A DNA stretch of 57,268 nt, filler included, from Stramenopiles sp. TOSAG23-6 (GCA_900128565.1; 4 parts of 4 records of this genome joined end to end with filler, not necessarily neighbours in it); one strand, 5' to 3'. Positions 466 to 57,268 are shown, numbered from the whole stretch's first letter. A program made the numbers and translations. Notes: generated from the letters alone by a model not told the origin.

Positions 466-2090
466 ATGATGAATTTTAAAAAAGAAATGGAAGAGCCATT
501 TGTTCGATTAGAAACTGGAAATTTATCTGTCGACAGTAGTACGAAGGTAAATGATTTTCGCAATGCCCCTAAAAGTCTTCATTTAGAGAGGAATCAAAGA
601 CAGCCTCAAGCACGGAGTATAGTTGCTTTCCTTCGTATTCATCTTACTGCAGTCGTTTTGTTCACGTCTTTGATAATGGCGTCTTTACAAACTGCAGCTA
701 TGAAAGAATTATCTGATGCAGGTGCACAGAATTGCACGTATACTATATCTGGTAAACGGGATAAACATGCACCCCCAAGACGAACACTTCTGGCAACAAA
801 CTCCACAGGAATTCAATATCTCGACAGACGTTTAGCTCGAAACGGTAGAAAGTATCACCGCCCGACGAATATATTGAATAATGCTGTGAGTCCTTTCAAC
901 ATATTAGTATACGGAAATGTTGTCATTTTTTTTGTTATGTTGACTATTTATGGAAGAATTGAAGTTGTTCGGTCGGCAAAAAAGCTAACAAAGAAGCAGT
1001 GGCTTGTACGTTTTCAAAATTGAACTTCGATTTTTTTTTACTAAGAAAATTTTGTACCTAACGATTTTTTTACTAAAAGAAATATTTCTGCACAATACTT
1101 GCTTTGAGTATGGGGTCATTGTTATATTCCGCGCTATGTCAGTCGTTTACATATTTGGCCCTTCAAGAGACATCTGCAATTAATGTGTCAGTATTGACTA
1201 GACTGGAACCTATAATGATTATGGTTCTAGCGAGGGTTATTTTAAATGAAAAAGTACCAATACATAATATTGCTGCAGCTATTATCTCATTGGTTGGGAT
1301 TTGTATGACTTTTGTTTACCCTACCATCTTTTTAGATACTGATTTTGAGTTTGGTTTAGGTGAGATATTTGCAATAATTGCTGCTACATGTGTTTCATTT
1401 AGTAGTATAATATCAAAAACAATGTTAAAGGAAGTTCCTCTTGGGCTATTCATTATTTATAGATGTTTTCTAGGGACAATTTTATTCTCAATCATAGGTG
1501 CAGTGCTAAATGGAGAATCAAACCTCGTAAATCCTTTTCAACTTTGTTCTGGTGTGTGGTTTTGGATTTTTGAATATGCCGGTCTATCAGTACTAGCTTT
1601 GATATTGTGGTTTGGTGCTGTTAAGCGGGCATCAGCGCAGTTATTATCACTCGCTACTAGTTTTGGATTTGTTATATCTTTAGTTGTATCATACTTTGCT
1701 CTCGGAGAAGTTCCAAGTGAAGCAGAATGGGTTGGTGCAGCACTTATCATTCTTTCATTATTAACTGCTCAGATCGGTGAAGCCTTGAAAGCAAAGCGTG
1801 AAAGATATGTCGTACTTGAAGACGGTAGAAGAGAAACAAGGATAATGTCAGCGGATGGTGAACGTCTTGAAATTTGCTGCTCTTTAGGTGATGCACCACA
1901 TGGAGGTTCTGAAACTAGTATCACTCTCTTACCTTTACATAACAGCAATGGTGAAGATGATAATAATCTAGAAGATACGAATTTCGTAGATGAATTGAAC
2001 AATCTTCGTTTAGGTATTGTGGAAGCATTAGGAGATAACATCGGTGAGGAATGTGCTCCAATAGGTGCAGGAGCTATTATAAGATATTAA
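466..2090 (+). CDS. EamA/DMT-family membrane transporter; exons 466-1005 and 1101-2090
   Basis: Many hydrophobic helices with EamA-like motifs (ALQETSAINVSVLTRLEPI; LGEVPSEAEWVGAALII). The two ORFs join in frame after removing the repeated intron. Confidence 0.8.
1006..1100 (+). other. Repeated-family intron, GT...TT (95 nt)
   Basis: Donor GTACGT, core TTTTGTACCTAAC, end CACAATACTT. Exon TT precedes the donor. An in-frame AAG at 1077-1079 is a possible canonical alternative acceptor. Confidence 0.65.
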
Positions 2091-2120
2091 ATTATAAGAT
2101 ATTAAATTATAAGATATTAA
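2076..2120 (+). repeat. 15-bp tandem repeat x3 (ATTATAAGATATTAA) spanning the EamA stop codon
   Basis: Three exact copies at 2076, 2091 and 2106. Confidence 0.9.
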
Positions 2121-2161
2121 ACTCACACAATAAATACTATTCCATTTATTATTAATCTAAA

Positions 2162-4051
2162 TCATTTTGATTCTTCTAAGTCACATACTACTGGAAGTGA
2201 CATTTTTTTAAGATTTTCAAGATGCCCTGAAAGCTCTGCAGCATTTAATTTATTTTTTTCTAATATATGTTTTACTTTAGAATCTATACTATTCGTTGTC
2301 TTTACTGGTATTTCTGGTATTTCTGATGTTTTTGTGTCAGTTCCACTATGGATTTCTCCAATTGGAGGCTGTATGATAGATTGTTTTGCCTTGAACTGCT
2401 CTAAATCGTGTATTTGTTGAGTGTAATGTTTTATGCGAATATTATAAGATTTCTTCATTTTTTCATGCTCTACTTTTTTCTTTGCAGCACTTACCTTGAC
2501 GCGTTTCAATTCCTTCTTTAATTTGGTCGTTCGCCGCTCGGAAGACTCAACTCGTTTATGTGCTTTTAGAAGAGTTCTCTTTGCTAAAGCGCGAACTTCT
2601 TTCAACGCTATTTCTAATTCACTTATTCTATTTTCATTTCCATTTTTTGATTTTTGGGTTTCTGAATTTTTTTTTCCACCTTCAACATTTGATGTATTCA
2701 TATCTTCATTTTGATTTTTATCACAGTCCCCATTTCTTAACTTTTGAATCAAAATATCTCTCTCGTTTATTTTTTTTCTTGCATCAGAACGAATCTCATT
2801 ACACTCAGCTTGCAATCGGGTAATTTGATCATGTGCATCATGCCGAAGATCAGCAAGCTGTCGAATAATAGATTCTTCCTCCAGACGAATTTTAGTATTT
2901 AATTGTTCGGATTTTTCTATTTTTTTTTGAGCATTTGATTTTGCAACTGATGCCTGTAGTCTGAAAGCTTCCTTCTGTTGAAGCAAAGATTCTTTGCAGC
3001 TCTGAAGTTGGAGCTTTAATTCAAGACGTTCAGATTTTAAGGTATTAATATGCTGATTTAACATTTTCTTTTGTTTATTACCTGCTGCTCTTTCATCCAT
3101 CAGTTTTGTATCAAAAGTATCGCGTTCTCTTTTCCGTTTCATTTCTAAATCTTCACATCGAATTTGTAATGTTCTTATTCTATCTTCAAAATCTGAAACT
3201 TGTTGCAACGATGACTTTAACTGTAAATGAAGTTTTGCATTGATTGAATCAGATGCTTCCGCTTTTTTTTCAGCCATTCGTTTTTGAGAAGAACTTGATT
3301 TTGTCTGAGCTTCAAATTCGGCTAATTTTCTTGCAGTTTCAAGTTTTGTAGTTTGACTCTGGACGTAAATTTCATCACGATTTGATGTGATTTCTTCTAA
3401 CTCAACAGAAAGCATTCGGTTTTGCACATTCAAATCATCTATTTTACCTTGCATTGATCGAAGACGTTCAGGCCATCCCATACTATTTGCTTTTTTTCTA
3501 ACTGACTGAATTTGTTGCTGAAGTTCCTCGACTGTTGCACGGTGGGACTCCTGTTGAGTTGCCAATTCAATATCTTTATGCATAGTAAATTCCTCAAATT
3601 CTGATTTTAATAACTCATATTTATGCTGCATACTAAAAGATTGTTCCTGGTACTTTTCTTTCTCTGTCTTAATTGCTAACAAATGCTCTTTGTGTTTTAC
3701 AGAAACTTCTTCCTGAATTTTCAGTCGCATGAGCTCTTCTTTTCGAGGTGGAGGTAGCTTTGAACGTAATTCATTCAAATTGCTCACTTGTTCTGCCAAT
3801 TGATTATTTAAAATCTGAGTTATATCAGCGTGATTGGATTCACAGTTTTCTTTCTCCTTTATAATATCATCATACTGTTTCTGAAGTTCTGCAAAATTAC
3901 CTCGTCCCTTTATGTGATCTGCTTTTAAACGGTCGTAATTTGACTTGAGTACTTCATTTTGATCCCGTAGAGTACGACACATTGAAACAGTTTTTGCTAG
4001 ATCCACTTGAAGCTCTGTAATTTGATCCATCAATGTGTTGTGTCGTTTCAT
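2162..4051 (-). CDS. CEP83: Centrosomal/distal appendage coiled-coil protein, CEP83 (CCDC41)-like
   Basis: 629-aa coiled coil. N-terminal segments KSNYDRLKADH, PPPRKEELMRLKIQEE and EKEKY...YELLKSEFE resemble the CEP83 N-terminal region as I recall it. Confidence 0.6.
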   Translation of the reverse strand: MKRHNTLMDQITELQVDLAKTVSMCRTLRDQNEVLKSNYDRLKADHIKGRGNFAELQKQYDDIIKEKENCESNHADITQILNNQLAEQVSNLNELRSKLPPPRKEELMRLKIQEEVSVKHKEHLLAIKTEKEKYQEQSFSMQHKYELLKSEFEEFTMHKDIELATQQESHRATVEELQQQIQSVRKKANSMGWPERLRSMQGKIDDLNVQNRMLSVELEEITSNRDEIYVQSQTTKLETARKLAEFEAQTKSSSSQKRMAEKKAEASDSINAKLHLQLKSSLQQVSDFEDRIRTLQIRCEDLEMKRKRERDTFDTKLMDERAAGNKQKKMLNQHINTLKSERLELKLQLQSCKESLLQQKEAFRLQASVAKSNAQKKIEKSEQLNTKIRLEEESIIRQLADLRHDAHDQITRLQAECNEIRSDARKKINERDILIQKLRNGDCDKNQNEDMNTSNVEGGKKNSETQKSKNGNENRISELEIALKEVRALAKRTLLKAHKRVESSERRTTKLKKELKRVKVSAAKKKVEHEKMKKSYNIRIKHYTQQIHDLEQFKAKQSIIQPPIGEIHSGTDTKTSEIPEIPVKTTNSIDSKVKHILEKNKLNAAELSGHLENLKKMSLPVVCDLEESK

Positions 4052-4390
4052 TCTAAACTTTCAAAACAAAGTTGTGTGTTGATATCAATAGTAATGCGTA
4101 AAGAAGTCGTGAAAAAAGTGAAGTTTGAATTTTTGAAAGTTTCGAAAATTTGAATTCAAAATATCACGAAATCGGAGTTTCGGAGTTATAATTAGCAAAA
4201 TGCGGCATATTTCGTGCGTAACTTACGGTAGCTGACTCTATTACCGGCGACTACCGGGCGCGCTCTCATTTATGAAAAACAATCAGTACTAAATATAACA
4301 GGAACTATAAAGCGTTTGATTTTTTACCAACGAACTCGAAGACACATTATTACATCCCCAATATTATTTGCTGAACTTGGCTGAACTCCA

Positions 4391-7300
4391 ATGAAGATTT
4401 TATGGAAAGTGCTCCTTCTCATTTGTAGTGCTCATGAAACACTTGCGTCTCTTTCGTCACAACCACAAGGTCCGCCAGGACAAATAGTTGTTGACCTTAC
4501 TGAGTCTGACAAAATTCCAAGTCAACACCAATTTTTAGGTGCTTCGGTTGGATATCAACTACCAATGGTTGCAGCACAGCCAGTTCTGCCCAATAATCCT
4601 CAGCCTTTTGTAATGCAGTCTACATATCAAGGATATCAACCCTCGTCTTATCATCAACAACAATCGCAATATGGTCAAGGTCCGGGTCAAGGTAACCAAC
4701 AAGGGCTTCAAGAGGACACATCCATGTCTTTAAATGAATTTTCTGATCATCTTCCTGGTTCAGGAATACATCTACCTTTACCTAATTATAATGAACAATA
4801 CGCACAGCAATTACGTCAGCAGCAACAACATCAATTGCAGCAACAACGGCTCTTGCAACAACAACTCTTGCAACAGCAACACTTGCAGCAACAACATTTG
4901 CAACAGCAACGATTGCAACAGCAACGATTGCAACAGCAACACTTGCAGCAGCAACACTTGCAACAGCAACACTTGCAACAGCAACACTTGCAACACTTGC
5001 AGCAGCAACACTTGCAACAACAAAACTTGCAGCAGCAACACTTGCAGCAGCAACACTTGCAACAGCAACACTTGCAACAGCAACGATTGCATCAACAAAA
5101 GCTTGTCCACATGAAACGAGGTCTACAAGTACTGAAGCAAATGCAAGTGAAGCAAGATAAGGCTATTGAAAACGAAAATCTACAAGTCCAAAAAAAGCAA
5201 AAACAAGAAAGAGAATCATTCGATCGTGAATGGGCAGCGAAAGTGGCAATGCAAAAGCAAATGCTAATTGAAAAGCAGAATAAAATAAGCAATCAAAGAT
5301 TGGAAATTGCAGCAAAATTTGACAGTAGAGAATTCTATTTACAATCTGACTTGGAATTTGAAATGAAGAGAAATTCCGACAAAATGGAAGAATTCGAAGG
5401 AATGAAAGTGAAAATAATAATGCAAATTGAGGAGCAAATGAAAGCAAAAAGGGAAGCGTTTGAGAATAAGCAGAAATTATTTGCAGCACAGGTACTTAAA
5501 AAAAACAGTGAAATGCAAGAAAAACTTTCTTATCAAATAATGCAGCAAAGTCAATCAATTGCCGAACATCAAAGTAGTACTACCCAGTCGCCAATTGGTG
5601 TTGGTGGGGCGGGCAGCACAAAGGGCACAAAATCAAAAAAAAATGTTGGTGGTGGGGCGGGCAGCACAAAGGACACAAAATCAAAAAAAAACAAAAAAAA
5701 AAAGTCAAAAACAAAACAAAAAAAATTGTTGAAGATTCGTTTCTTTCCAGAAAATGATGGGGGTGAAGATTTTCGACTCGCTGTAAAAGAAGTGAAGGCA
5801 TTGCCACAATTTATATATGGTATTAATCAATGGACGTCTGTTGAACATAACGGTAATCCCCTGTTTCACAGTGTATTAAAGAAACATATTATAAATACAA
5901 AGATACTTCTTGAAAATGGTGCAAAACCAAATATATCGAATCGTATTACAGGAATGCTTCCGTTGTACGTAGCAGTTCGTCAACAAAGTTCAAAAATTGT
6001 AGAAATGTTATTGAAGATAAATACAGAACAAAAAGGAACAAAGAGAGTATGGTTAATTCCGCAATTCGGTAAAATGAGAAGAGATGCATGTTTTATTTTT
6101 TGCAATTTCGAATTTTCTTTTTTTCGTACGAAATTTTGTACCTAACAAAACAAATATCTTTTTCTTTTCACAATACATGCAGAAAATACCGTGAATTTTC
6201 CTACACCTTTTCATCAAGTTGCGCAAAATGGAAATGTGGAAATCATGAAGTCTCTATTGCAACATCCCATAAAACAGAAAACAAGAGCTAAAATTCTCGA
6301 TGTAAGGAAAAAAGATTCTGGTCACACTGCGTTACATATTGCTTCATTCTATGGACACGTAGAAATTGTAAAATTATTATTGTCAAATGGTGCATCTCCG
6401 GATATTAAGGAGAATCAAGGTCTAACTCCAGTGGAGGTTGCAAACGATAATCAAGAAGTTATTTCTTTATTCAAAAGTTATATACCACAGAAAAAAAGAA
6501 AGACTCGAAAAAAACAAGATGTTGTAAGTAGAGCCAGAAGTGTTGTTCCTGATGATTTTGAATCTGAAAGTGAATCTGAAAGTGAATCTGAAAGTTACGA
6601 ATATCCAGATTCAGGTTCGCTTCATCATAATAATGGTGATGAAGATTATGTGGGAACAGAACATTCAAGACCAGGGACCAGACGAAGTACCAGACGAAGT
6701 AGTGGACTATCCGCCATCGAAAATAAATTATTTTTGAATTCAGATGACGTTGAGACATTGCGCGTATCACTGCACAATAATAGAGCATTTTTGACTCGAA
6801 GGAATAAGCAAGGCGATACAGTTTTATTTCATGTAGTTAGGAATAATTATGTAGACAGTGCAGACCTTGTTTTACAGGCTCTAATACGAAATTCAGGACG
6901 CCGAATGAATGGAACGGATAGTAAGGGTTTTACGCCGCTTCATTTGGCTGTATTTAATGACAGTAGAGATATGGTAATGAAGTTACTTGAATATGGTGCA
7001 AATCCGAGTATACCTATTAAAGCACCGATTCAGAACGAATTTGAAGAGAAATCTCACATTAAATATCAAGGTATGACGCCTTTACATTTAGCTGCACTTA
7101 GCGGACATCTCAATATCTTGTACATATTATTACAAGACAAAAGAATGGACAATCACTTGAACAGTATAGATGATAAAGGTAACACAGCTTTGCACTACGC
7201 TTGCTCTCAGGGACATACAAGATCTGTGTCACATGTATGTTTTATTTTTTTTTCAATTTTGAATTGTTTTTGCGTACGAAAATTTGTACCTAACATTTTT

Positions 7301-8353
7301 TTTTTGAAATATTTTTCCAAAATACATCTCGTCCGAAATTATGTCTCAACCAAAATCAGGAATGATGATGGTAAAAGTGCATACACAATGGCACTTGACA
7401 GTGGTCATACGGAGACAGCTCGAGTATTACTTGAAACAGAGCAACACTTAAAACAACAGAGTAAAGATGAACGTATGGCAAGAAAACGAAAACAAGGTAG
7501 ATTTGTCATTAAAGTTCCACTAAAGGTTCTTTTACAACATCAAAAAGCTTGTAGAGTTGGAGGACCAAAGGGATTTCGTAAAGAAAAACACACCACTACG
7601 ACACTTCTTCTTCCAAGGCTCTTTGGTCATTTTGTTAATGATGATGGTGATGGTGCATTTGATGATGGCGACGAAGGACCATCAAAGAAGAAACAACGTA
7701 TTTCTACTAATTTTAATACTGGTCCAAATTCAGTTACTGCTATCGATGATTCAGGTATTGGCCTTCAAAGTCAAAGCTTACCAACTGAGAAAGATTTAAA
7801 TGCCGTAAGACGTTCTCTATTGACTATACAAAATAATCCAGACTTCAACACCAAGGCTAGATTATCAAAAATACAAAACAAAAACGATTCTTACGGCCTG
7901 ATTGCGACAAAACCGATAAAAAAAGACGAATTAATTGCGTATTATGTGCTTGATCTTTTCGATGGTAGACAGGCAAAGCATGCAGAAAAAGTAATTCAAG
8001 ATTATTATGTTGATATTCCTGAATTTTTGATAAAAGAATCCGAAGTTGATGTGGTAGGTGTGCCACATTTACAAAGTGTTGTAAAATCTGGTCTAAAAAA
8101 CGATGACAACATCAGTTTCTTGGGGTTATTTTCAAATGAGCCAAATCCGCACGAATCTTCAAATGCTGACTTAGGTTGGCTTGAAAACGAAGATGGAAAA
8201 TTAAAAGATGTTGGAGGCCAGGTGAAATTTGCATTATATGCGACTACTGATATACCAATAGGAATTGAAATACTATGGTGTTATCGAGGGTTGTATGTAC
8301 GAGATTATAAAACAAGTTGCCCAAATGATTCATCTTCACCTGGTAACGCATGA
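4391..8353 (+). CDS. Signal peptide + polyQ + ankyrin repeats + C-terminal SET-like domain; exons 4391-6085, 6179-7234, 7328-8353
   Basis: Hydrophobic N-terminus MKILWKVLLLICSAHETLA. Several ankyrin motifs (GHTALHIAS, GFTPLHLAV, GNTALHYAC). SET-like motifs YGLIATKPIKKDE, FSNEP and YATTDIPIGIEILWCY. Confidence 0.8.
4838..5097 (+). repeat. 15-nt coding tandem repeat encoding (QQQHL)n
   Basis: Repeated CAACAGCAACACTTG-like units within the ORF. Confidence 0.9.
6086..6178 (+). other. Repeated-family intron, GC...AT (93 nt)
   Basis: Donor GCATGT, core TTTCGTACGAAATTTTGTACCTAAC, end CACAATACAT. Contains an in-frame stop. ATGCA flanks both sides. The next AG (6181-6182) is out of frame. Confidence 0.8.
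7235..7327 (+). other. Repeated-family intron, GT...AT (93 nt)
   Basis: GTATGT...GTACCTAAC...AAAATACAT. Removal restores exact ankyrin spacing GHTRSVSH|LVRNYVSTKIRNDDGKSA. Confidence 0.85.
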
Positions 8354-8493: not shown

Positions 8494-11400
8494 TTAACGG
8501 CGATTTCGATTGTTTCGATTTCCACGATTGTTGGGAGAAACTTTTTTTTTTCCGTTTCTATTGCCGTCACCATTTACTCCAAGACTTTTACGCCCACCAG
8601 ACTGCCTACGAGAGTTTTGTCTTCCGCCATCTCTATTGTCCCGAGAAGATTTTTTTGAACTTTCTCGATGTTTCTCAGCATCCTTCTTATTCTCTCTACC
8701 ATTTGCTCTTGGAGACCTACGAGGTGACTTCGGACGAGTTTTCAATTTATCTTGTTTTGCTTTTTCCAATTTTAGACGTAATGCGCTTTCCGTATTTAAA
8801 CTCGTTCTATTTGAATTTTGTTTCTGTGATCTAGAATTAGAGCTAGGTGGCACTGGGCTGTTATTACCTCGATCTCTCTTGGAACTATTCATATTACTAG
8901 TATTACCATTGTTCATACTACGGTGTCGCTTCACAGGTCTATTAGAAGAAAAAGATATACCTTTAGATTTATTAGCATTTACAACAGTTTCTCTACTTCG
9001 TTTAGAACCTACCTTTGGATTCGAATCTTTATCTCTATCACGGCCACGATCTCTTTTAAAGTTATTTGTATTTGGACGTTCACGACTTCGACTACGATCA
9101 CGACGATCTTTATCACCGCGGATATTTTTTTCTCTATCAAGAGTAGCCCGACCAACATTATTCATATCTTTCCTATACGAACCTCGAGGATCATCTCTAT
9201 TGCGTTTAGGTCCATCACGTCTATCATCACGTTTAGGACCATCACGTCTAGGACCATCGCGTCTATCATCACGTCTAGGACCATCACGTCTAGGACCATC
9301 GCGTCTATCATCACGTCTATCATCACGTTTAGGACCATCGCGTCTTCGATCATCCCCATCTCGACGCTTACCATCTTCGCGGTCTTTCAATCTAGATGAA
9401 GACTGCATCGCTCCATTTCCCGAAACAGCTCTTTCAGATGAAGAATTTTTACGCGTAGATCTACCTTTTTTTGAGTTTGATTTAGCGACTACATCTCCAA
9501 CTGCAGGTTTGAAGCCTTTAAGTAGTTTAGATAATGTCGCATGGTATCGAGATGCCATAATACGCAAATCTTCACGTTCTTCTGCATCTACAAGTTTCGC
9601 CGTATATTTTTCCAGAAGGGCTGAAGTTTTGTAACACCAAGGAAATATTTCAGATATTTTTAGCAAGACTATCAAACCATTTCTAATTTGCATGTAATCA
9701 GATGAATCGAGACATTGCATCATCACTTGCGCAACACGGTCATACCATTTTTGTGATAACTTCTTGAACTGAACATAGGTCAATTTCGTCTTATTCTTAG
9801 AATTACTAGGTTCTACCAGAAAACCGACTTTGCTCTGAGCTCCTAAACCAAATAATTTTGTTGAAGATCGCCAAGATTTAATTAATTGAAATATCTCTTT
9901 TAGGAATATACCAAGGTTACCAGCTTCACACTCAGAAAGACACAACACCGTCGCGGGTAGTGCATTGAAACAGATTTCCAAACACTTTGTCGTGGAGAAT
10001 GAAGGCGTGTTAAGATTGTGTAATAAAAGTATAAATTTGGCAGAGTAACTTGCTCCAGCAGGTGAATACTTCAAACGAGGAAATAATAATCTTCGTACAA
10101 TCTGTTCTGATATAGATTCGGAATCCTTTTCATCAGAGATATTGCAAAGCCAATTTGACTTGGTAAGATTCATCGATTGAAGAACGACACGTGAGCATGC
10201 TTGCTGTGCTGCAAGTTCCCTTTTAAGTTTTGATAAAGAACTAGACAAATTATCATTTGTTTTCCTCCTCAATTTCTCTTCAGCTTTCACCTCAGAACTT
10301 AATTTTCCAAATGTTGAAACAGGTTTATTTGCCAATGCAGCAATACGATCTTTAATTGATTTAATACGGGATTGATATAGTGTTTCTGGTACATATATGT
10401 CATATAACTCATATGTCCAAAAAGTCATATATAATTCAGGCGACAAAGAATTCCATTGATCGGCGAATATTGTTCTAATTGCATTTATCATTGGATTAGC
10501 AAAAGGTTGCCATGGGATTAGGCATGCATTAGAAGATTTATCATCTTTGACTTGTAAAGCACGTCTAAGTGAAGAGCGACACATATTAAACGCAGCAGCA
10601 GGTGACACATTATAATCTAATATAAGCGACGACAACGACGGTAGTGGCAACCTTGAGACAATTTCTTCTGGACTAAGATGCTGGTTTAAAAATTCGCAAT
10701 ACATTCGAAGAGTCACCTGAACATCATCAAAATTTCCACCGATCATTTTAAGATGAGTTCCGGCCACAGATGACTGTGAAAACACAGTCGCATCTAGTTG
10801 TTGACTAATCATAACTAATAAAGGTAAAGCAAATGGTTTCTCGCCGTCCACTAAAGCTTTCTTTAATGATGATGTAGCCCGCGAAGAAATATGTGTAGAT
10901 GATATCGCAAGGATTGAAGTCTGTTGCTTCAATTCACTTCCACCAGCGAGGCCTTCCAACTGTTGATCAGATATCTGATCAAATGTTTCAAGACCTGCAA
11001 CTCGAGCTAATAGCTGCTGCAATATACAAAGATCTACAGATTCATTCGCTTTTAATTTAGTCGTGATAAACTGTAACAATCCAGACATCTCAGTTGTGTG
11101 GTACTTTTTAAAAAATGAGCCAGTGAATTTTGCAAGAGAATTCAACCAATGACTGATATTTGCACCATCCGCTTTTATCCGAGATCGACTACCCCCACCA
11201 AGTTTTGAGACAAGAACACAAACGAGACAATCAGCGGCCATTGGAGTAAGGTATCTAAGTGAATCGACGACGGGTTGAATAAGATTATCAAATGCTTCAA
11301 TACGCATAATAATTGTTTGAAAGACATGCAATGGGTTTGAGTGTGATAGCTTACCAATCTGGCGACCAACAAGACGTACAGTTTCTAATGCTAAACGTTT

Positions 11401-13248
11401 CAAAACCGTTTTTGTAGCATACTCAGTCTTCTTACGAATGCGATGCATCAAAGGATGAGAACCTAAAATATGCAATCCTGCATGCCACTTTCCGTACATA
11501 TCATATCTTTCACTACACGAAAACTGACTAAAGAACAACCATAATTCAGACACAACAGCTGGATTTGGACCAACAAGAGATAATCCTGGGAGTAATATGT
11601 CACTAACGATTTTACGCATACATTTGGATTCTTCTGGATCACTGAGAACATCACAATGTGGTGGAGTGGAACAATCATATTTCCCATACACTAACTGCAT
11701 CAAACGACAAAGTTTTGTATATAATTTAATGTCTCTTGCTACTAAGGGTCCAATTTCTGAAAGAACAGGTAGTAAAGTTGATGCTAAATTATCAAATCTT
11801 TCTGGGGCTTTAATAAAATTTGAAGAAAATGATTCATTTTCATCATCAATGATCATTCTAGACGTCGTGATCTGGTGACTATCTCTTGGCTTTATGGAAG
11901 GTATCTCAGATTGTGCTCGAAAACGCACATTTACACAAGAAATTTCAGAATTGTATATTGGTTCTATGAGATAATTGACCAATCGAATTAAAGCTAATAA
12001 AACATCTTTGTCATCTGTTGCATCAATTCCAAGCGATTCAAATCGGCGAAGCAGTTTTACAGCCAATGACCAACAACGCATATCTAACGCACCTACAAGT
12101 AGTCTGAATTTAGAATTTTGTCCAGCCTCTTCTCGGTCTTCATCAGACATTGCAATAAAAGGTTCAATTAAATAGGGTTTATCCACGAATTTGTCGCGCT
12201 GAGAATCTGATTTACCTGTGAGTGACACAACACCAATTTTTTTTAGTTTTGCTGCCATATCTTCACGATATTCTTTACTTGCTGTAATAAGTTCTGCGTC
12301 TGATGGAGATAAATGTGGCCACAGTTGGTCAACTCCATTCACTCCAAGTTTAGATTGGGCTAAAAGAAGTGCACTCAAACGACAAAGTGATACAGGAACT
12401 TGTTGAAATGCATTTGCGAAACACTGGAACTTAAAACCAAGTACATGTACAATATTATCTTCTTTAAATAAAGATACAAGTGAGTTATAACAAGGGTTTG
12501 ATAAATTATTTTCGTAACTTTCGAGTACAAGGTCAAACACTCGATTAGGATCAAGGAAAAATTGACCAATTAAACCCCGAATATTTTTCTTTACCGCGGG
12601 AAGTGTCTTATAATTTATATCTTGGTTAAGCGCAGTGATAAGCTTTGAATAACCTTCTGTTTCTTCACGAAGCAAATTAAATTTTGACTGTGTGTACAGT
12701 TGTTTAGTATTGCTTTTCACTAATTTTTTATGAATTGCATTTCGGCTTGGGATTAGGTTGGAAGATTCTAAGATATATAAATCGAGCCTTTCTTGTGCAA
12801 GATCCTTTGAAATAATTCCCTGTGATGCAAGTAAGTTAATAAGACAAGAAAGACGAGTCATACCGTCACTACTGTTACCAAGCGCGGCGCGACATTGACA
12901 GGCGACTAACCATAATACGTCTACGAGTAAAGTCATAATTCCCTCTTTTTTAGAATTACAAGCAAATTCCAAGATAGAAACAGCAACTTTTGGGGTAAAC
13001 AATTCTCCAACAACATGCCAAAGTATTTCGAGAAAGCATCGGTGAAGCTTCGCCGGAGCAGAGATAGTGTCAAGAGACGCAGCTGACAAACTGTCATCGA
13101 CAAGGGAAAACGAGTCAACACATTCCGAGACGATTTTTTTTGAAGCTATACCACTTTTGTCCTTTGAAGCCATCTTAACCGGTAGTAATTCAAATTTGCA
13201 GAAAACCATTGGATTAAACAAAAGTGGTGTAGCATCAGAGTTCGCCAT
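8494..13248 (-). CDS. THOC2: THO complex subunit 2
   Basis: Conserved motifs YTQSKFNLLREETEGYSKL, LIGQFFLDPNRVFDLVLE, NLIQPVVDSLRYLT and YMQIRNGLIVL, plus an R/D-rich tail. ATG at 13248. Confidence 0.95.
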   Translation of the reverse strand: MANSDATPLLFNPMVFCKFELLPVKMASKDKSGIASKKIVSECVDSFSLVDDSLSAASLDTISAPAKLHRCFLEILWHVVGELFTPKVAVSILEFACNSKKEGIMTLLVDVLWLVACQCRAALGNSSDGMTRLSCLINLLASQGIISKDLAQERLDLYILESSNLIPSRNAIHKKLVKSNTKQLYTQSKFNLLREETEGYSKLITALNQDINYKTLPAVKKNIRGLIGQFFLDPNRVFDLVLESYENNLSNPCYNSLVSLFKEDNIVHVLGFKFQCFANAFQQVPVSLCRLSALLLAQSKLGVNGVDQLWPHLSPSDAELITASKEYREDMAAKLKKIGVVSLTGKSDSQRDKFVDKPYLIEPFIAMSDEDREEAGQNSKFRLLVGALDMRCWSLAVKLLRRFESLGIDATDDKDVLLALIRLVNYLIEPIYNSEISCVNVRFRAQSEIPSIKPRDSHQITTSRMIIDDENESFSSNFIKAPERFDNLASTLLPVLSEIGPLVARDIKLYTKLCRLMQLVYGKYDCSTPPHCDVLSDPEESKCMRKIVSDILLPGLSLVGPNPAVVSELWLFFSQFSCSERYDMYGKWHAGLHILGSHPLMHRIRKKTEYATKTVLKRLALETVRLVGRQIGKLSHSNPLHVFQTIIMRIEAFDNLIQPVVDSLRYLTPMAADCLVCVLVSKLGGGSRSRIKADGANISHWLNSLAKFTGSFFKKYHTTEMSGLLQFITTKLKANESVDLCILQQLLARVAGLETFDQISDQQLEGLAGGSELKQQTSILAISSTHISSRATSSLKKALVDGEKPFALPLLVMISQQLDATVFSQSSVAGTHLKMIGGNFDDVQVTLRMYCEFLNQHLSPEEIVSRLPLPSLSSLILDYNVSPAAAFNMCRSSLRRALQVKDDKSSNACLIPWQPFANPMINAIRTIFADQWNSLSPELYMTFWTYELYDIYVPETLYQSRIKSIKDRIAALANKPVSTFGKLSSEVKAEEKLRRKTNDNLSSSLSKLKRELAAQQACSRVVLQSMNLTKSNWLCNISDEKDSESISEQIVRRLLFPRLKYSPAGASYSAKFILLLHNLNTPSFSTTKCLEICFNALPATVLCLSECEAGNLGIFLKEIFQLIKSWRSSTKLFGLGAQSKVGFLVEPSNSKNKTKLTYVQFKKLSQKWYDRVAQVMMQCLDSSDYMQIRNGLIVLLKISEIFPWCYKTSALLEKYTAKLVDAEEREDLRIMASRYHATLSKLLKGFKPAVGDVVAKSNSKKGRSTRKNSSSERAVSGNGAMQSSSRLKDREDGKRRDGDDRRRDGPKRDDRRDDRRDGPRRDGPRRDDRRDGPRRDGPKRDDRRDGPKRNRDDPRGSYRKDMNNVGRATLDREKNIRGDKDRRDRSRSRERPNTNNFKRDRGRDRDKDSNPKVGSKRSRETVVNANKSKGISFSSNRPVKRHRSMNNGNTSNMNSSKRDRGNNSPVPPSSNSRSQKQNSNRTSLNTESALRLKLEKAKQDKLKTRPKSPRRSPRANGRENKKDAEKHRESSKKSSRDNRDGGRQNSRRQSGGRKSLGVNGDGNRNGKKKVSPNNRGNRNNRNRR

Positions 13249-13355
13249 TTTTTTAGACAAATTACCCTTTATTAATTATAATATGGGTGAAAGTCTGTGT
13301 ACAACACGACATCATGACACTCGAGTTGTTCGAACTTCGAAGTTCGACCTGTACG

Positions 13356-13663: not shown

Positions 13664-14263
13664 ATGTTTTCGACAACCGATTCTGTTCCAAGGTTACCTC
13701 ACCCTGTGACTAGTTTGGATTTACGAAGTCTCTCCAGATTTTCAGCTCTTCTTTCATTGGGATCTGGATTGAAGTGCGGATATTTATTAGAGCGTTCTAG
13801 AACTAGTAAGTCATTTGAGACTGATTGGCGTAGGCGCTGGTTTGTGTTAAAGGAACGTCAACTTTTTCATTATTCACATAATTATAGTGATAGCCAAGAA
13901 GCCTCTAACAACCGAAGTAATTTTGGTACAGATGTGGGTTCAATATCTCTGGTAGGTGTTGAGCCATGTGACATTTCGGAGTACGTTTTAGTTTTTTTCA
14001 ATTTTTATCTACATTTTTTTTCATACGAAATTTCGTACCTAACGATTTTTTTTAAAAAGAAAATATTTTTTCACAATATATGTCGCAAGATTCAAAATCC
14101 TCGTTTATATTTGAACTTGATTTACCACGAAGTTTTCATCAGCTAAGAGCATCTACTCGAACTGAAGCACAAGAGTGGGTTCAGATTCTACAAGAACAAG
14201 TCCGCTTGGTAAAAGAGAACGAATACTTTAATATGGCTGAACTCATCATTGCTGATAGTGAAT
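13664..14263 (+). CDS. PH-domain protein, 3' truncated by contig end; exons 13664-13980 and 14082-14263
   Basis: KCGYL...WRRRWFVLK...GSISL...FIFEL...LRAST..EAQEWVQIL forms one PH domain only after splicing. Confidence 0.8.
13981..14081 (+). other. Repeated-family intron, GT...AT (101 nt)
   Basis: GTACGT...TACGAAATTTCGTACCTAAC...CACAATATAT. The phase-2 join GA|G restores the PH frame. AGs at 14058-14059 and 14088-14089 are out of frame. Confidence 0.8.
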
Positions 14264-14330
14264 GTATATTTTATTTTTTTTTTTTACAAAAAAATCGAAT
14301 TTTTTTTTCATACGAAATTTTGTACCTAAC
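14264..14330 (+). other. Repeated-family intron, 5' part (contig ends in the conserved core)
   Basis: AT|GTATAT...TACGAAATTTTGTACCTAAC followed by Ns. Confidence 0.8.
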
Positions 14331-14430
14331 NNNNNNNNNNNNNNNNNNNNNNNNNNNNNNNNNNNNNNNNNNNNTTAATTAATTAANNNNNNNNNNNNNN
14401 NNNNNNNNNNNNNNNNNNNNNNNNNNNNNN
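14331..14430. other. Artificial contig linker
   Basis: 44 N + TTAATTAATTAA (stops in six frames) + 44 N. Confidence 0.95.
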
Positions 14431-14457
14431 AGGGAGGATTTTGTCTGTCCCATGAAG

Positions 14458-14555
14458 ATATATTTCAAAAAAAAAAAAAAAAAAAATCATTAGTACAACA
14501 TTTTTGTACGAAAAAAAAAATAAATTTAAAATTTCAAATTGAAATGAAAACATAC
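14458..14555 (-). other. Repeated-family intron, GT...AT (98 nt)
   Basis: Minus strand AT|GTATGT...CGTACAAAAATGTTGTACTAAT...GAAATATAT. The host exons are not identified, so the acceptor is less certain. Confidence 0.6.
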
Positions 14556-41022: not shown

Positions 41023-41102
41023 NNNNNNNNNNNNNNNNNNNNNNNNNNNNNNNNNNNNNNNNNNNNNNNNNNNNNNNNNNNNNNNNNNNNNNNNNNNNNN
41101 NN
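41023..41102. other. Assembly gap (80 N)
   Basis: Plain N run without linker. Confidence 0.95.
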
Positions 41103-43036: not shown

Positions 43037-43136
43037 NNNNNNNNNNNNNNNNNNNNNNNNNNNNNNNNNNNNNNNNNNNNTTAATTAATTAANNNNNNNN
43101 NNNNNNNNNNNNNNNNNNNNNNNNNNNNNNNNNNNN
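43037..43136. other. Artificial contig linker
   Basis: 44 N + TTAATTAATTAA + 44 N. Confidence 0.95.
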
Positions 43137-46100: not shown

Positions 46101-46866
46101 GTTAGTTGGTTGTTGCTGAAGTACAAAGTTCCGAGATTTGTTAGTTTACCAATTTCTATTGGTATTGTACCAGTTAGATTGTTGTTGTACAACCACAATT
46201 GTATGAGATTTGATAGTTGACCAATTTCTGTTGGTATTGTACCAGATAGTTGGTTAGTGCTCAAGCTCAAATCTTTGAGATTTGTTAGTTGAACAATTTC
46301 TGTTGGTATTGTACCAGATAGTGTGTTGTTGTTTCTCAAGGACAATTTTTTGAGATTTGATAATCGACCAATTTCACTTGGTATTGGACCAGATAGGTTG
46401 TTATAACTCAAGTACAAAGTTCCGAGATTTGTTAGTTTACCAATTTCTGTTGGAATTGAACCAGTCAGCTTGTTATTAAAATACAATTCCCTGTAAAGTA
46501 ATAAATATATGTCATGAAAATAACTTTTTAGAGTCTAGATATACATAATTATTGAAATGTAATGAAGTAAGACAATACTACGTACAAATCGGTAAGTTTA
46601 GTTAAATTACCAATTTCAGTTGGAATTGTACCACTTAGATGGTCGTTTGATGCACTAGATAATAAATGGAGTGTTGTAAGATTTGTTAAGCCACCAATTT
46701 CAGTTGGAATTGTACCGGTACCACTTAGTGCATCTTGTACCAATTTCAATTCAGTAACAATGTCAGGATCGGATGAACCACATATTATCACAGCCCCACA
46801 TACATCATCCAAATCTTTACCAGTTAATGCCTTATATACAGTCTTTGCTGTTTCAATCTCACTCAT
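43137..46866 (-). CDS. Plant-type LRR protein with >45 repeats, 3' truncated; exons 46866-46586 and 46490-43137
   Basis: Continuous 24-25 aa LxxLxLxxNxLSGxIPxEIG repeats. Confidence 0.9.
46491..46585 (-). other. Canonical GT...AG intron (95 nt), not of the repeated family
   Basis: TT|GTACGT...TTTACAG|G gives in-frame TDLELYFNNKLTG. No family core sequence. Confidence 0.8.
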
Positions 46867-47095: not shown

Positions 47096-48988
47096 TTAAC
47101 AACTAATAAATCCTTTATTATTCTTTCCTTCGCAAAATTTTGATTTCAATATTTCATTTCCATTCTTATATATTATTTCAATATAATCTTCTGAATGCGA
47201 TTGTATGTCATTAAAATAGATAATGATGAGTATCAAAAAGGCAAACGGCAGCGCGATGCAACATGTTAAATCGATAAATCCAGCAAGGCGTCTTGCGGAA
47301 CTTTGTGTAAAATCATCAATATCCATATCTTTTTGTACCATTTGAGCAATTTCACAATATTTAGTATCACTGGATTTTTTCATGATATTCTCTTTCACAG
47401 AATCACCAGATAATGGTGCAACTTTGGCATTTTGATGCTTCGATCGCCGTTGAAGGACTTCAATACGTTCTACGTTTGGATCGCCTCGACAACATAATGG
47501 AAGTCTAAGGGCTAGATTGGCCCACATGTGCAGTAGTCTTGCAATCAAAATGTTGTGTGAATCTTGATATCTCCATCGTGTATTTGCTTGATTAATAATT
47601 AATGCCCACTCTGAAAATGTAATCATATCAATAGGTTTATTTGTGTTTTCATCAAAAATACCATTCGACTTTCCTTCACTAATATTATTCACCTTTTTAT
47701 TTCTACCATCAGCTTCTTTTAAAATTGAAAGTGTGGTCATATCAATATCATCATTTGTGTTTTTATCAAAATTCATCTTTTTATTTTCCGTCTGCTTTTT
47801 CATTTTACCTTCCAATACTCGATGAACAATCTTTAAAATTGAATTTGCGCTGATGTCGTCTATTCCCAATTTACTCATACCATTGACAATTTCTGTTTTA
47901 TCAAGAAACCCATCTTTGTTGACGTCAAGCTCTGAGAAAAGCGTCAAGAGTTGCGATGTGCTTTTGTATCCTGAAGGGGTCTTTACATTATATAAAGATA
48001 CTACAACTATAGATGCTGCAACCGTGGCGAGCATCATAAACATACACGTCATATATAGTTTCGACATGACCGTCCATTCACCAACCTTTGGGATTTCATC
48101 GTGGGCTACAAAATATATTGCTACTACTGTTAGAAGGGTGGTAATACCAAGACCAATCCGTTCGCCACTATCAGGGTTTAAGAGAAAACCCAAGAAACCC
48201 ACAATTGTACAAAGAGCCATTGGTGCAATAATAGAGTATACATAAGAGAGAGACTCACGCTTCACTACTAAAGTATACTCAATTACGGCATATGGCTCGG
48301 GGCAACATGAATAAATTGTCTCTACGTATTCAGTTTCTATTCTAATAAGCCTCATTTCAGTATGTTGCTTAAAGCTGTCAACCGTAACTGCTGCTATTTT
48401 ATTTCCTGTTGACCTCGGTATTATATCAAAATCATTTTTATTCATTGCCCAAGACCCTAGAGTAAACTTGCAACTTTGGACATCAAATGGGAATTTTTTC
48501 AGATCTAGACTGCAACCCATTTTTATGGTTTTTGGCTGGCTGTAAAATATTTCTCCACTTTCATAAACTGTGATCTGGGGCTTAATTGCTTCGTTAACAT
48601 CAATTGATTCGTATACAACATCATCAGGAACCCATAATTCTTCTCGTGGCACAAGGAGAACTTTTTCGTTTTTATAACCAGCTGTATTTTTATCCCACTT
48701 CAATCTGGCATCTTGCCAATAATGCCGCCACCACCCATTGACAGTAATTGTCTGGCTCGCTGTATCAAAATTGACAATACTCTGAAGAGAAAGCTGTATT
48801 CGAAGCTTCTGCTGGCCGTCTAGGTCTGTGGGCGTTCCTGTTTTTTTCTTGTCATAGCTATTAAAAAGAGTATCTCGCAAAGTTGTTGCAACCACCATAG
48901 TTTTTCCAACCTCCCGAAATGGAGTGATAACATTCAAGCATATGACACAAAAATATATTGAACTAGTTTTAAAGGCATACATTTTCAT
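47096..48988 (-). CDS. Pentameric Cys-loop ligand-gated ion channel, nicotinic alpha-like, with intracellular EF-hand
   Basis: WQDARLKW, LWVPD, Cys-loop CSLDLKKFPFDVQSC, LGSW, loop C YSCCPEPY, DSGERIGLGITTLL, four TM helices, EF loop DVNKDGFLDKTE. Confidence 0.9.
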   Translation of the reverse strand: MKMYAFKTSSIYFCVICLNVITPFREVGKTMVVATTLRDTLFNSYDKKKTGTPTDLDGQQKLRIQLSLQSIVNFDTASQTITVNGWWRHYWQDARLKWDKNTAGYKNEKVLLVPREELWVPDDVVYESIDVNEAIKPQITVYESGEIFYSQPKTIKMGCSLDLKKFPFDVQSCKFTLGSWAMNKNDFDIIPRSTGNKIAAVTVDSFKQHTEMRLIRIETEYVETIYSCCPEPYAVIEYTLVVKRESLSYVYSIIAPMALCTIVGFLGFLLNPDSGERIGLGITTLLTVVAIYFVAHDEIPKVGEWTVMSKLYMTCMFMMLATVAASIVVVSLYNVKTPSGYKSTSQLLTLFSELDVNKDGFLDKTEIVNGMSKLGIDDISANSILKIVHRVLEGKMKKQTENKKMNFDKNTNDDIDMTTLSILKEADGRNKKVNNISEGKSNGIFDENTNKPIDMITFSEWALIINQANTRWRYQDSHNILIARLLHMWANLALRLPLCCRGDPNVERIEVLQRRSKHQNAKVAPLSGDSVKENIMKKSSDTKYCEIAQMVQKDMDIDDFTQSSARRLAGFIDLTCCIALPFAFLILIIIYFNDIQSHSEDYIEIIYKNGNEILKSKFCEGKNNKGFISC

Positions 48989-51482: not shown

Positions 51483-54400
51483 ATGCTAATATCTAATGCT
51501 CTTTACACGGACACAAAAATTGTTGATGCATTAGACACTGTGGAATCTGATCTGTCTTCCTTTTCAAAACGTCTTTGTAAGGCTGCTTTGAATGAAATGA
51601 TTGACTTAGAGAACACCATCCTTTCTAAATCAAATGGTAGTCTCATAGAGGAAGTCAATAGTAATATCATAGAGGAAGTCAAGAGTAATATGTACATGCA
51701 TCCAACGCCAGTATGTTGGGGCAGTAGTCGTTGTCAGAGTACAGACGCTCATGATAAATTAGTTAGGTCGATACAAAATCATTATCAAGAAGCTAAGCAA
51801 CAACAGATAAATCCTACAGCCAAAGAATCCAAGCAACTTCCTCAGTGGATTTGCGAACTACCAACAAAACTTCCTGATGTACCACAAGGGCTTCGTGAGT
51901 ATTGCAAAAGTGTGGTTGAAAGTGGATTAGTTGCCGCCGCTAAAAGTTTTCTTAAAGATGAAAATATTCCAGATTCATTACTTTCACCTGTGAAACACGT
52001 TATTAGTGGAAGAAGCGAACAAATTAGGGAATTAAGAGACCCAAAATGCGCACAATTTTTTGCTACATTATTTCATCATATTCAATTCAACGCACCTACG
52101 GCTTGCGAGTTTACAGGTTGGGATCTTTACCATGGACATTTATTTCTTCACAGAAGAGATTCTTTACGAAAAGGTGTCACTCAAAATAAATTGCTACAAA
52201 ATTCTGTACTTACTGAGTACTTGCAAAGTACGTATGACATGGGAATACTCTTTCACGCGAAGGAGCATCCTCGTGAATATTCTTGTACTGGTAAAAAAAT
52301 ATATCCTATCGGTCATAAATTAATGGGTGGTACAAAAGATCCTCGCTCAGGCTCGAAATGTAGTGTTCGTGATACTGACTACGGTCTCCGAAATTATCTC
52401 TGGCTCATGTCGTGTGTACGTTTTCATTTTAATTTTTTTTTGTTTTTTTTGTTTTTAGTACGAAATTCTGTACCTAACGATTATTTTTTTGAAATATTTT
52501 TTCACGATACGTAATAAAATCGTAGTGTTAGACCCAACAGTTGAAAAGGGCTTTCCCAGCCAACTTTTTCAAGATGGAACTGCTGGTAGTATTTTTCTTT
52601 CAGTGAATGCTTTTGGATTTGGCCTGTATCTTGGAGATGTTAATTATTTTCCTGGAATCACAACCAATTTTGATTGTACGAATCATAAATTTAGTTGCAA
52701 AAATAGTACAAAAAATAGTTGTGTCAAAAAAACATGCAAACTCATAAGGGTAAAACAGCTTTGTGCTATTGCTGATAAACAAAGAGCTTCAATTGGAATA
52801 CAATACACATGTGAGAAACAAAAGAAACAAAAGGGTACTCATATAAGACAAAAAAGCGATGAAAGTTCGAATAATGATGCAGATAGTGACACTAGTGGTG
52901 ATAATGGAACTATTTTGGAAAGTTCGAATAATGATGCAGATAGTGACACTAGTGGTGATAATAGAACTATTTTGGAATCATTGAATTCAACTATAAATTA
53001 CACGGAAGGTAAGGTGAACGCCATGGAGCAGTTGGAAACAGGTAATTCAGAGACAAATGGCATACGCAATAATGACATAAATGAAGATTCAAAATGTATT
53101 GGTGGTACGATAAATAAATCACTAAATGACATAAATGATACTGAAAGTGGAGTTTGTCTAGGTGGATTGAGTGCTAATCGATTGAGAGAAATATCAGCTT
53201 GGCGAAAGAAGCACAAAAGTAGCTATAGTATTGATGCTATCTTGGGTTCTGGAGATTATGGTTCTGATATACAGATTGCTCTTACGAGTTCAAAAGCATA
53301 TAATGCACCAGCTTCGGATTTTTGTCTTTATGTTCTCAGTTTAATTGGTATAGCCATAGATAACGCAGAGGCATATAATAGAATAAATGGCGCAGCTAAT
53401 ATAGAGCACAAACGGGTAAGTTCACTTGAAGACCATCAAGTTCTTCACACATCAACATTCAATATTTATTCTGTTGCAGAAGCTGCAGAAGCCCTAGACC
53501 TTTTAAGTGGATGCAAGATTGCTCAAGGGTTAAAAATTATTCTGAATTCTTTGAATAAAATTGTCAATCCTGTTCTATCTATGCTATGCGCTGAATCAAG
53601 GGCAGTTGCAACAGCTTCGTTTACAAAGGCAACAATGCGTTTATCGCGGATAGAGTCAGAGGTGGAACAAAAACGCGAAAAGTCTTTTTTGGAAGAAATG
53701 GCTAAACTTCAGAGTAATGTTGGTGCATTCGGTCTTACTCGATTGCATGCCGCGAAGAGCTTGGATTTAACAAAAAAACTATGTTTTACTGAAGGAAGAA
53801 TAGCCTATAGTGCTTTTAGAGCTGAATGTTTATTGTCTGTAGCATTTCCTCAATATAGAATAAATTTAATTAAAGAACAACAAAAGAGAATTTCAACACC
53901 TCATATTGGAAAGGCTAAAAGTGACTGTGTTCATATAAAAGATGTATTATTTCAAAGACTTACTCTAGAAAAGATTGTAGGCAAAACTCGAAAGCGAAAC
54001 AATAGTAATGTACAAGACATTAAGAGTACATGGAAGGAGTCATCGATTAGTGGTATCCAATCACAATCATTGCTGTCTAAAACAGAGGCCTATAAAAACC
54101 TAGTGCATCGTAATTGTGTGACGTGTGCATCTTCAATAAAAATGCACTCTGAAGACATTGATATTGGTTCTTTACACTCCCGTCGTCGCGGTATTCGTTC
54201 TTCGAAACCTATTCTAACAAGAGGTGACTCAATTCAAAATCTTTCTGTATCTGAAGAAACAAAAGAAAATATGTTATGCTTGTTCTGTGGTAATGTATTT
54301 TGCGGTCGATATACAAATCGCCACATGTTAGATCATATGAAAAGTAGTGGTCATTTGGTAGTTATTGGATTAAAAAAAGGCACCATTTGGTGTTACGGAT

Positions 54401-56440: not shown

Positions 56441-56558
56441 TTCCTGAAATAAAACTTGTTTAAATCAAAGTGTCACTCACGTCACGCATGCAATCGCAAT
56501 ATCGCAATATCATTGTATTCGAATTTCAAAAAAGCTCCAAAACCAGCTAATACCTATA

Positions 56559-56573
56559 CTAGGGTTAGGGTTA
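56559..56573. promoter_or_regulatory. CTAGGGTTAGGGTTA motif in divergent promoter
   Basis: Lies between genes starting at 56440 (-) and 56734 (+). Exact reverse complement of 13356-13370. Confidence 0.5.
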
Positions 56574-56733
56574 TAGTAGTCAGTGAAGCCTATACGTCAG
56601 TCGATCTTATACAAGCTATTTACTACTGTAGGTACAATTCAGTTACTTCCCAGTAGTTCATTGCATGTACTTGGGTATCCTCTTATTTGTTATCAACTAG
56701 TAATTAAACTATTGCATGTTGTAATTTGCTTGG

Positions 56734-57207
56734 ATGGAGTCCTTAAATCAAGAGTATAATATTGCGGTAGAGCGGGTAAAAAAGTCAGCTAAAGAATTAC
56801 GTTTTGCTCTCGCTGCTGATGCACAACCTTTGCTAAGTAGTACCATAGAGACTCTCCGAAAGGAACTCTGCCAGTCACAAACTCATCTTTCTGCTGTAAA
56901 GTTAGCAAGAAAAAAAGAGATTCGAAAAGCACGGTCTCGTGCTGCTAATAAAAATCCTAACCCTAATCTTACTCCCTCAGAAGCAGCAAGGCTCCGTGTG
57001 ACAGGTCTACCCAGCTCTAGTTATTGGTCAAGTCAACCAGATAAACATTCCTGGAAATATTATCCAAAACCTCGTGACATTCCACAGGATTGCGATTCCT
57101 GGACAATAAGTTTCGATATCAGAGACACAAAAGCTGCAAGAGAATTCTGGGAAGAATGGGGATTTGTCATATTTCGAAACGTATTATCTTCAAAAGAGTG
57201 TTCTGAT
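56734..57207 (+). CDS. First exon of a probable phytanoyl-CoA dioxygenase (PhyH)-like protein
   Basis: AREFWEEWGFVIFRNVLSSKEC resembles the start of PhyH-type 2OG-Fe(II) domains. Catalytic motifs would lie outside the window. Confidence 0.55.
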
Positions 57208-57268
57208 GTATGCTTTATTTTTTTTTCAATTTCGAAGTTTTTTTTTCGTACGAAATTTTGTACCTAAC
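57208..57268 (+). other. Repeated-family intron, 5' part
   Basis: AT|GTATGC...TTTCGTACGAAATTTTGTACCTAAC at the window end. Confidence 0.8.

Follow-up and report, generated by a model that had tools for sequence, protein, structure and literature searches.

We found that the introns lacking a terminal AG in a stretch of DNA from Stramenopiles sp. TOSAG23-6 (GCA_900128565.1) are copies of one repeat family, AT-rich segments of about 91-104 nucleotides (nt) that interrupt long open reading frames (ORFs). The window, that is, the whole stretch analysed here, is 57,268 bases long, eukaryotic and dense in coding sequence, and is made of four contigs joined by runs of N flanking a 12-nt linker with stops in all frames (joins 14331-14430, 28697-28796 and 43037-43136). 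The copies are probably introners, that is, a short non-autonomous element resembling a DNA transposon, whose insertion into genes created introns that are spliced without AG. A previous reading of the same DNA, made from the sequence only, had pointed to the unusual intron ends. We add to it that these introns form one repeat family with the hallmarks of a transposon, and that their 3' dinucleotide copies the exon bases before the donor.

A family of similar introns in unrelated genes

With a family profile built from six copies, an nhmmer search of the window gave 13 matches with E <=2.6e-07, plus three weak ones. The strong copies are spread over at least 10 genes, so that many introns of similar sequence lie in unrelated genes, the pattern that characterizes introners. 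Pairwise identity among copies is 61-88% (median 71%, best pair 88%), and of an 11-nt core surrounding the branch box there are 10 exact occurrences and three with one mismatch; when up to two mismatches are allowed, 28 occurrences are found versus 16.05 expected. All 13 strong matches are in sense orientation relative to the interrupted ORF, which by our own arithmetic has a two-sided chance of about 2e-4. Moreover, contigs or the window end inside family copies at 14264-14330, 28797-28847 and 57208-57268, accounting for two of the three joins and the window end, which is how a high-copy repeat acts on an assembly. The members are listed below in order of position, with the evidence for each in brackets.

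1006-1100, plus strand: family intron, 95 nt, GT..TT, in an EamA/SLC35-type transporter gene (nhmmer E 2.5e-08; frames fit; 5 homologues ungapped; 3-nt direct repeat CTT)
6086-6178, plus strand: family intron, 93 nt, GC..AT, in an ankyrin/SET gene (nhmmer E 4e-15)
7235-7327, plus strand: family intron, 93 nt, GT..AT, in the ankyrin/SET gene (nhmmer and frames; in frame and stop-free)
13981-14081, plus strand: family intron, 101 nt, GT..AT, in a PH-domain gene (nhmmer and frames; the PH profile ends at position 55 of 105 at the exon end)
14264-14330, plus strand: truncated copy, 5' part, starting with GT and cut by the contig end, in the same PH gene as 13981-14081 (nhmmer)
14452-14555, minus strand: weak family member, 104 nt, GT..AT, in a MatE gene (nhmmer E 0.12; spliced frame)
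14652-14743, minus strand: family intron, 92 nt, GA..AG, in the MatE gene (nhmmer and frames; MatE profile 1-146 of 161 at the exon end)
28797-28847, plus strand: truncated copy, 3' part, ending in AT and cut by the contig start, before an exon of a zf-MYND gene (nhmmer)
33339-33432, minus strand: family intron, 94 nt, GT..AT, in the Dpy-30 motif of an NDK-Dpy30-adenylate-kinase gene (RNA joint in runs X1 and X6; 8 homologues ungapped)
33752-33852, minus strand: family intron, 101 nt, GT..AT, in the second NDK domain (no GY..AG alternative within 45 nt; PDB NDK7; 8 homologues ungapped)
34270-34364, minus strand: family intron, 95 nt, GT..AT, in the first NDK domain, at the same codon as 33752-33852 (nhmmer; frames; homologues)
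41352-41445, minus strand: family intron, 94 nt, GT..AT (94-nt skip in RNA of run X2; frames)
52416-52512, plus strand: family intron, 97 nt, GT..GT, in a zf-UBP gene (nhmmer; frames; 2-nt direct repeat GT; an in-frame AG 36 nt downstream is possible)
57208-57268, plus strand: truncated copy, 5' part, starting with GT and cut by the window end (nhmmer)

A scan of JGI metagenome contigs with a 19-nt element core returned three loci, all of them unrelated chance matches, and gave no further copies or empty sites. A looser search of the window for a donor followed by a branch motif produced too much noise to reveal additional introns.

Splice signals and reading frames

The counts of intron ends are based on 11 complete copies with definable ends, including the weak member 14452-14555. 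At the 3' side, eight of them end in AT and one each in GT, TT and AG, so that the YAG of U2-type introns is absent from 10 of the 11, as RNA confirms for 33339-33432. The sequence-only reading had counted 14 complete introns, two of them with AG; its tally of mostly AT with one GT and one TT stands, and its totals are corrected to 11 introns with defined ends and one AG. The copy ending in AG, 14652-14743, is also the sole one starting with GA, a single case. At the 5' side, GT opens nine copies, GC one and GA one, within a conserved GTAYGTTTT that conforms to the GTRNGT type of donor. In an alignment of 12 copies, the G at +1 is invariant, and the columns of GTAYGTTTT and CTAAC are either invariant or more than 90% conserved. 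The predicted branch site, CTAAC in 10 of 11 copies and CTAAT in the other, lies 32-38 nt before the 3' end and is followed by runs of T; the 3' region carries a conserved A-rich ..AATAY motif and then two more bases.

The U12-type donor RTATCCTT, whose absence had already been noted from the sequence, occurs in none of the 12 aligned copies, and the four occurrences in the window (3.78 expected) are not at these introns. U12-type introns have their branch box about 10-15 nt from the 3' end, much closer than in this family. Among six copies that were folded, one pairs its two ends (z = -2.79), while the other five, with z from -0.97 to +0.34, are no stabler than shuffles and lack the stable end pairing expected of structure-guided excision, so a hairpin joining the ends is not supported for the family. 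Removal by a route other than the U2 type, either a U12-like system that tolerates non-AG ends or excision guided by structure as in euglenid and Amoebophrya introns, is for these reasons unlikely. It would draw on reports that the minor spliceosome splices GT-AT introns (PMC1557818), on the layout of direct and inverted repeats, which resembles that of Amoebophrya introners (PMC7789003), and on the single copy that pairs its ends, but the donor and branch-box distance of a U12-type intron are missing, five of six folds are unremarkable, and the strongly conserved parts of the element are the classical U2-type signals.

All the segments on which the sequence-only reading was built are present at their positions, and exact removal joins two long open frames in each of the 11 copies with defined ends. 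Nine of the 11 lengths are not multiples of three, and reading through hits stops in nine of 11; only 7235-7327 and 13981-14081 can be read through without a stop. At 6086-6178, removal joins open frames of 1701 and 2172 nt with Pfam ankyrin matches on either side, and read-through meets a stop. At 7235-7327, which is indeed 93 nt long and free of stops, removal gives the 33-residue spacing of ankyrin repeats (read by eye from the sequence, outside any tool test). Frame alone is weak evidence, because removing a transposon and one copy of its target restores any frame by construction.

RNA joints at two introns

Contigs from four seawater metatranscriptome runs (X1, X2, X3 and X6) were compared with 28797-43036. 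In X1 and X6, which belong to different studies, one contig each connects 33337 directly with 33432, leaving out 94 nt; the joint can slide by one base and, on the gene strand, corresponds to GT..AT or TG..TG, and the first AG downstream of the 3' end is unused. A contig of X2 skips 94 nt at 41351-41444, which matches intron 41352-41445 with an ambiguity of one base, and leaves unused an in-frame AG 3 nt further on. An independent contig from X3 covers 33228-33478 unspliced, with no base differences and a 2-nt gap within the intron. Since it agrees with the genome at 33339-33432, the AT end is not a sequencing error, a possibility that had been raised against the non-AG ends from the start. 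Joints found at 33752-33852 and 34270-34364 were set aside as repeat artefacts because they link different copies.

The same runs bear on the abundance of the family. Summed word depth in X2 and X3 is 451-2309 in bins with family copies (28797-29271, 33547-34496 and 41147-41621) versus 0-10 over exons, and 225 and 247 of the aligned RNA contigs (X2 and X3) fit two places, which indicates that the family is very abundant in these samples, from many loci or from relatives. At the truncated copy 28797-28847, contigs of other copies in X2 and X3 cease to match at 28847.

Plain transposon insertions that are never removed, with RNA joints that derive from alleles without the insertion, are a highly improbable explanation of these data. 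Such alleles could in principle yield the joints: introner presence/absence polymorphism is common in other species, unspliced contigs exist, and removing the element with one repeat restores the frame, spliced or not. However, at least 10 genes in 57 kb would then be broken; nine of 11 lengths are not multiples of three, nine of 11 read-throughs meet stops, and all 13 strong copies are in sense. Moreover, diverged copies (61-76% identity) keep their donor and branch box, and the host ORFs are intact for 300-2800 nt on both sides.

Homologues across the junctions

The gene on the minus strand from 35815 to 30498 becomes, when its three introns are removed, a single ORF of 1675 amino acids with an NDK-NDK-Dpy30-adenylate-kinase architecture. 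We compared this product with eight homologues, picked from 26 matches for having the same architecture, and found no gap at any of the three junctions, ..NIPM/SSGK.., ..LTDFM/SSGP.. and ..TLVE/GLTELC.. (the slash marks the junction). In addition, PDB NDK7 alignments of the separate exons abut at FM/SSGP. The Dpy-30 TLVEGLTELC and NDPK FMSSGP motifs, which the sequence-only reading saw restored by non-AG joins, are thus borne out by homologues. In the transporter gene at 466-2090, the junction of 1006-1100 is ungapped against the best 5 of 150 listed relatives, at 38-62% identity, and this favours its GT..TT end over the in-frame AGs that lie 21 nt upstream and 42 nt downstream. Exact excision is therefore seen in RNA for one intron and, with a one-base ambiguity, for a second, and four junctions (34270-34364, 33752-33852, 33339-33432 and 1006-1100) are gap-free against homologues with non-AG ends only.

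Among the longer proteins in the database, no gene model was found for the NDK-adenylate-kinase gene. The sole identical match to its middle exon, P0040, was rejected as a spliced model, being an unspliced read-through ORF. Related NDK-Dpy30 proteins from other environmental contigs, P0048 and P0055, have in-frame insertions of about 15 and about 25 residues, at different places, relative to P0058; ORF callers may here have read through short introns.

Could ordinary AG acceptors, sometimes with other donors, be used instead, giving proteins with small indels relative to exact excision? If donor and acceptor may each be placed as far as 45 nt away, nine of the 11 introns have a stop-free in-frame GY..AG pair, and when the consensus donor is kept, stop-free in-frame AG alternatives exist for 1006, 41445 and 52416. 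Since such alternatives are available for most introns, the case rests on RNA and homology and not on an absence of AG; for the copies at 6086, 7235, 13981, 14452, 14652 and 52416 the support is frame and family membership. We nevertheless consider AG acceptors very unlikely, because neither RNA joint, at 33339-33432 or at 41352-41445, falls on an AG, four junctions are gap-free against homologues, 33752-33852 has no alternative, and the copy at 7235-7327 contains no AG at all. A two-step removal like that of stwintrons was ruled out because five of the 11 copies are without any AG.

These results adjust the sequence-only reading in several respects. It had named five decisive introns with no nearby in-frame AG, which is true of 33752-33852, whereas the other four have GY..AG pairs within 45 nt, and 52416 loses its decisive role, since it has an in-frame AG, usable with its own donor, 36 nt downstream. 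The in-frame AG alternatives that it had conceded at 1006 and 41445 do exist with the consensus donor, and homologues (1006) and RNA (41445) favour the non-AG ends. Its central claim, that U2-like introns are spliced without AG, is upheld by the RNA at 33339-33432 (two of four runs, two studies) and by the four homologue junctions, "U2-type" being here a description of motifs; that this happens "routinely" holds within the 57-kb window.

Direct repeats and transposon hallmarks

In 8 of 11 copies, the dinucleotide that ends the intron is identical to the one that ends the exon ahead of the donor, and in 5 of 11 the identity extends to three bases. This includes the odd cases, in which an exon ending in ..GT precedes an intron ending in ..GT and an exon ending in ..CTT precedes an intron ending in ..CTT. 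When the ends are shuffled among copies, the mean is 5.3 matches (permutation P = 0.017), and AT precedes 9% of all GTs in the window versus 7 of 11 family donors. By inspection, the two ends of the element form short inverted repeats. Thus, a direct repeat of at least 2 nt in 8 of 11 copies accompanies terminal inverted repeats, the two hallmarks expected of introners, and because the exon bases before the donor recur at the intron end, the 3' dinucleotide looks like the target-site duplication of a transposon-like introner. The introns 33752-33852 and 34270-34364 sit at the same codon (the M of FM/SSG) of paralogous NDK domains, both at a CAT/GTC site, which suggests parallel insertion by target preference rather than shared ancestry.

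A direct repeat also leaves room for intron boundaries to slide, over as many as 4 positions in young copies, and the true boundaries could lie 2 nt to the left, in which case young copies would be AT..AC introns and GT..AT an artefact of the repeat. This shift gives the same messenger RNA in 8 of 11 copies, five of which then end in AC, and both spliceosomes accept introns that pair A at +1 with C at -1. However, the RNA-verified intron 33339-33432 permits only GT..AT or TG..TG, and 13981-14081 permits only shifts of 0 to +2. Moreover, the shift would end 34270-34364, 41352-41445 and 14452-14555 in AT, CC and TC and would leave 5' ends of AT, TT or GT, whereas without it all 11 copies have G at +1 and a GTAYGT-like donor. 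We therefore think it improbable that the family consists of AT..AC introns.

A proposed origin and splicing mechanism

We infer that the family arose by transposition and that its copies are removed by a U2-type spliceosome, in the following way. The element would supply its own 5' splice site (GTAYGT), branch-site box (CTAAC) and T-rich tract, and would terminate in short inverted repeats. Insertion would duplicate 2-3 nt of the target, most often (C)AT before G, and the host splicing machinery would remove the element together with the downstream copy of the duplicated target, so that the messenger RNA regains its original sequence. The 3' end would then be whatever the target was, AT mostly and GT, TT or AG in single copies, and since it would be set by the target, the second splicing step should need no AG here. 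As to what positions the 3' cut, we would guess at the conserved A-rich ..AATAY motif that precedes the duplicated bases, in combination with a pyrimidine at -3 and a tolerance of U at -1; a strict distance ruler is unlikely because the distance from branch box to 3' end varies by several nucleotides among copies.

More tentatively, and as a possibility we would not yet favour, an otherwise classical major spliceosome may ignore the last two intron bases, with the cut set by the element-internal ..AATAY plus the 2-3 duplicated target bases. If the last two bases do go unread, a transposon with AT targets could colonise thousands of coding sites as instantly spliceable introns. More generally, a terminal dinucleotide that is apparently set by target duplication would offer a simple route to massive intron gain.

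Several points weigh against the reading of these copies as introners spliced without AG. A clean RNA joint exists for one intron only, 33339-33432, in two of four runs. The X2 contig at the second intron, with 3 base differences and a 5-nt gap, represents a slightly different strain, and its joint is one base off, corresponding either to TA..TA or to GT..AT with a base difference. At 33752-33852 and 34270-34364 the four runs gave no clean joint, the only ones being cross-copy joints with sides of 20-24 nt, and X3 contigs run unspliced across 33339-33432 and across a donor at 38393. Direct repeats are absent from 3 of 11 copies, and the permutation test reaches only modest significance. Neither a transposase nor an autonomous partner was seen in the window. 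Conservation of motifs among the copies is not independent evidence, as the copies are related by descent. Finally, AG occurs inside the copies 0.82 times per intron versus 2.45 expected from composition, which may mean that AG is still recognised or competes as an acceptor; we place little weight on this scarcity because the copies share ancestry.

Other segments and host genes of the window

A further intron-like segment and a weak match lie outside the set of defined copies.

38320-38393, minus strand: intron-like segment in an EXO1-like gene, unmatched by nhmmer, with donor GTACTT at 38393 and candidate 3' ends at 38323 (AC), 38320 (TT) and 38290 (AG)
40862-40901, plus strand: weak partial profile match (E 0.016) outside long ORFs, which may be a fragment of a non-genic copy

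The first had been counted among the complete introns; its donor stands, and its 3' end is one of the three candidates, among which EXO1 structures give no means of choosing, since the loop there stays unaligned. Another proposed intron, at 23327, is not established as one; it runs through a tandem repeat upstream of an ORF. This repeat, at 23166-23299, consists of 3.0 copies of a 44-nt unit with 98% identity, just upstream of an ORF of 1281 amino acids.

Pfam domains in the window include THO2, a multi-domain adenylate kinase, an LRR protein, a Cys-loop channel, an EXO1-like protein, MatE and EamA, and Rfam gave zero matches in the window. The THO2 ORF is 100% identical to one database protein, whose source label indicates an uncultured marine stramenopile, and the next best matches are from oomycetes at 34-35% identity. 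This THO2 gene (8494-13275, minus strand) is uninterrupted over 1593 amino acids, and the identical database protein, P0001 (1318 amino acids), is without several in-frame stretches of it; introns may have been annotated in the source at places where they are unnecessary. The LRR gene at 43305-46478 (minus strand) has a 72-nt period with about 44 repeats and several near-identical longer blocks, and the Cys-loop ligand-gated channel at 47096-48988 (minus strand) has an EF-hand after its transmembrane region.

Comparison with known introners and non-AG introns

Introners are repeated introns derived from transposons, described in Micromonas, Aureococcus, Chrysochromulina, dinoflagellates and others (PMC9860276 and PMC12130899). 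The family described here resembles them in comprising many similar short sense introns in unrelated genes, in its terminal inverted repeats and short target duplication, and in the restoration of the messenger RNA by splicing, and it resembles the introners of Chrysochromulina in particular in that the element carries one splice site while the other falls in the duplication (PMC9860276, Fig. 2 legend). In contrast to the families described there, which end in AG, the duplicated target and 3' end here are AT mostly and GT or TT singly. In published surveys of introners, AG and AC count as acceptable 3' ends, and a family with unfamiliar ends is dropped unless it has RNA support (PMC12130899, section 13). 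Where AG (or AC) is demanded, by gene prediction or by a survey of this sort, genomes of this kind would be mis-annotated and such families missed, and the THO2 database protein, which already differs from the uninterrupted ORF, is a warning about annotation.

In layout, the family also resembles the introners of the parasitic dinoflagellate Amoebophrya, which are transposon-like repeated introns lacking GT-AG, with direct repeats at their borders (there 3-5 nt) and inverted repeats at their ends. They differ in having no dominant terminal dinucleotides, inverted repeats of 8-20 nt that are predicted to form hairpins, and an incomplete U1/U5 set (PMC7789003). The family described here, unlike that of Amoebophrya, has a classical 5' site and branch box, departs from the usual pattern at the 3' end only, and shows no stable predicted hairpin in five of six folded copies. 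In the tunicate Fritillaria borealis, introns with 3' AC or AT are spliced genome-wide by a modified major spliceosome, but most introns there also lack GT at their 5' end, and the non-AG ends are bound by additional, diverged paralogues of U2AF1 and U2AF2 (PMC13326754). Mammalian GT-AT introns include one of the U2 type (DGCR2), conserved between human and mouse, and four human and three mouse introns of the U12 type (PMC1557818); they are isolated single introns that make up well under 1% of all, whereas here GT-AT introns are the main class in the window and belong to one repeat family. Our literature search found no description of a classical 5' half combined with a target-set 3' end, and look-ups in papers on marine stramenopile genomes, outside their supplements, found no reference to these introns.

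Few signals of eukaryotic gene expression are as conserved as the AG that closes an intron. Where it is known to be abandoned on a large scale, in Fritillaria, Amoebophrya and euglenids, the 5' end of the intron or the splicing machinery is altered as well. The single abundant family described here has a donor and branch box that look ordinary and departs at the 3' end alone, and the choice of the 3' splice site is thereby separated from the other splicing signals.

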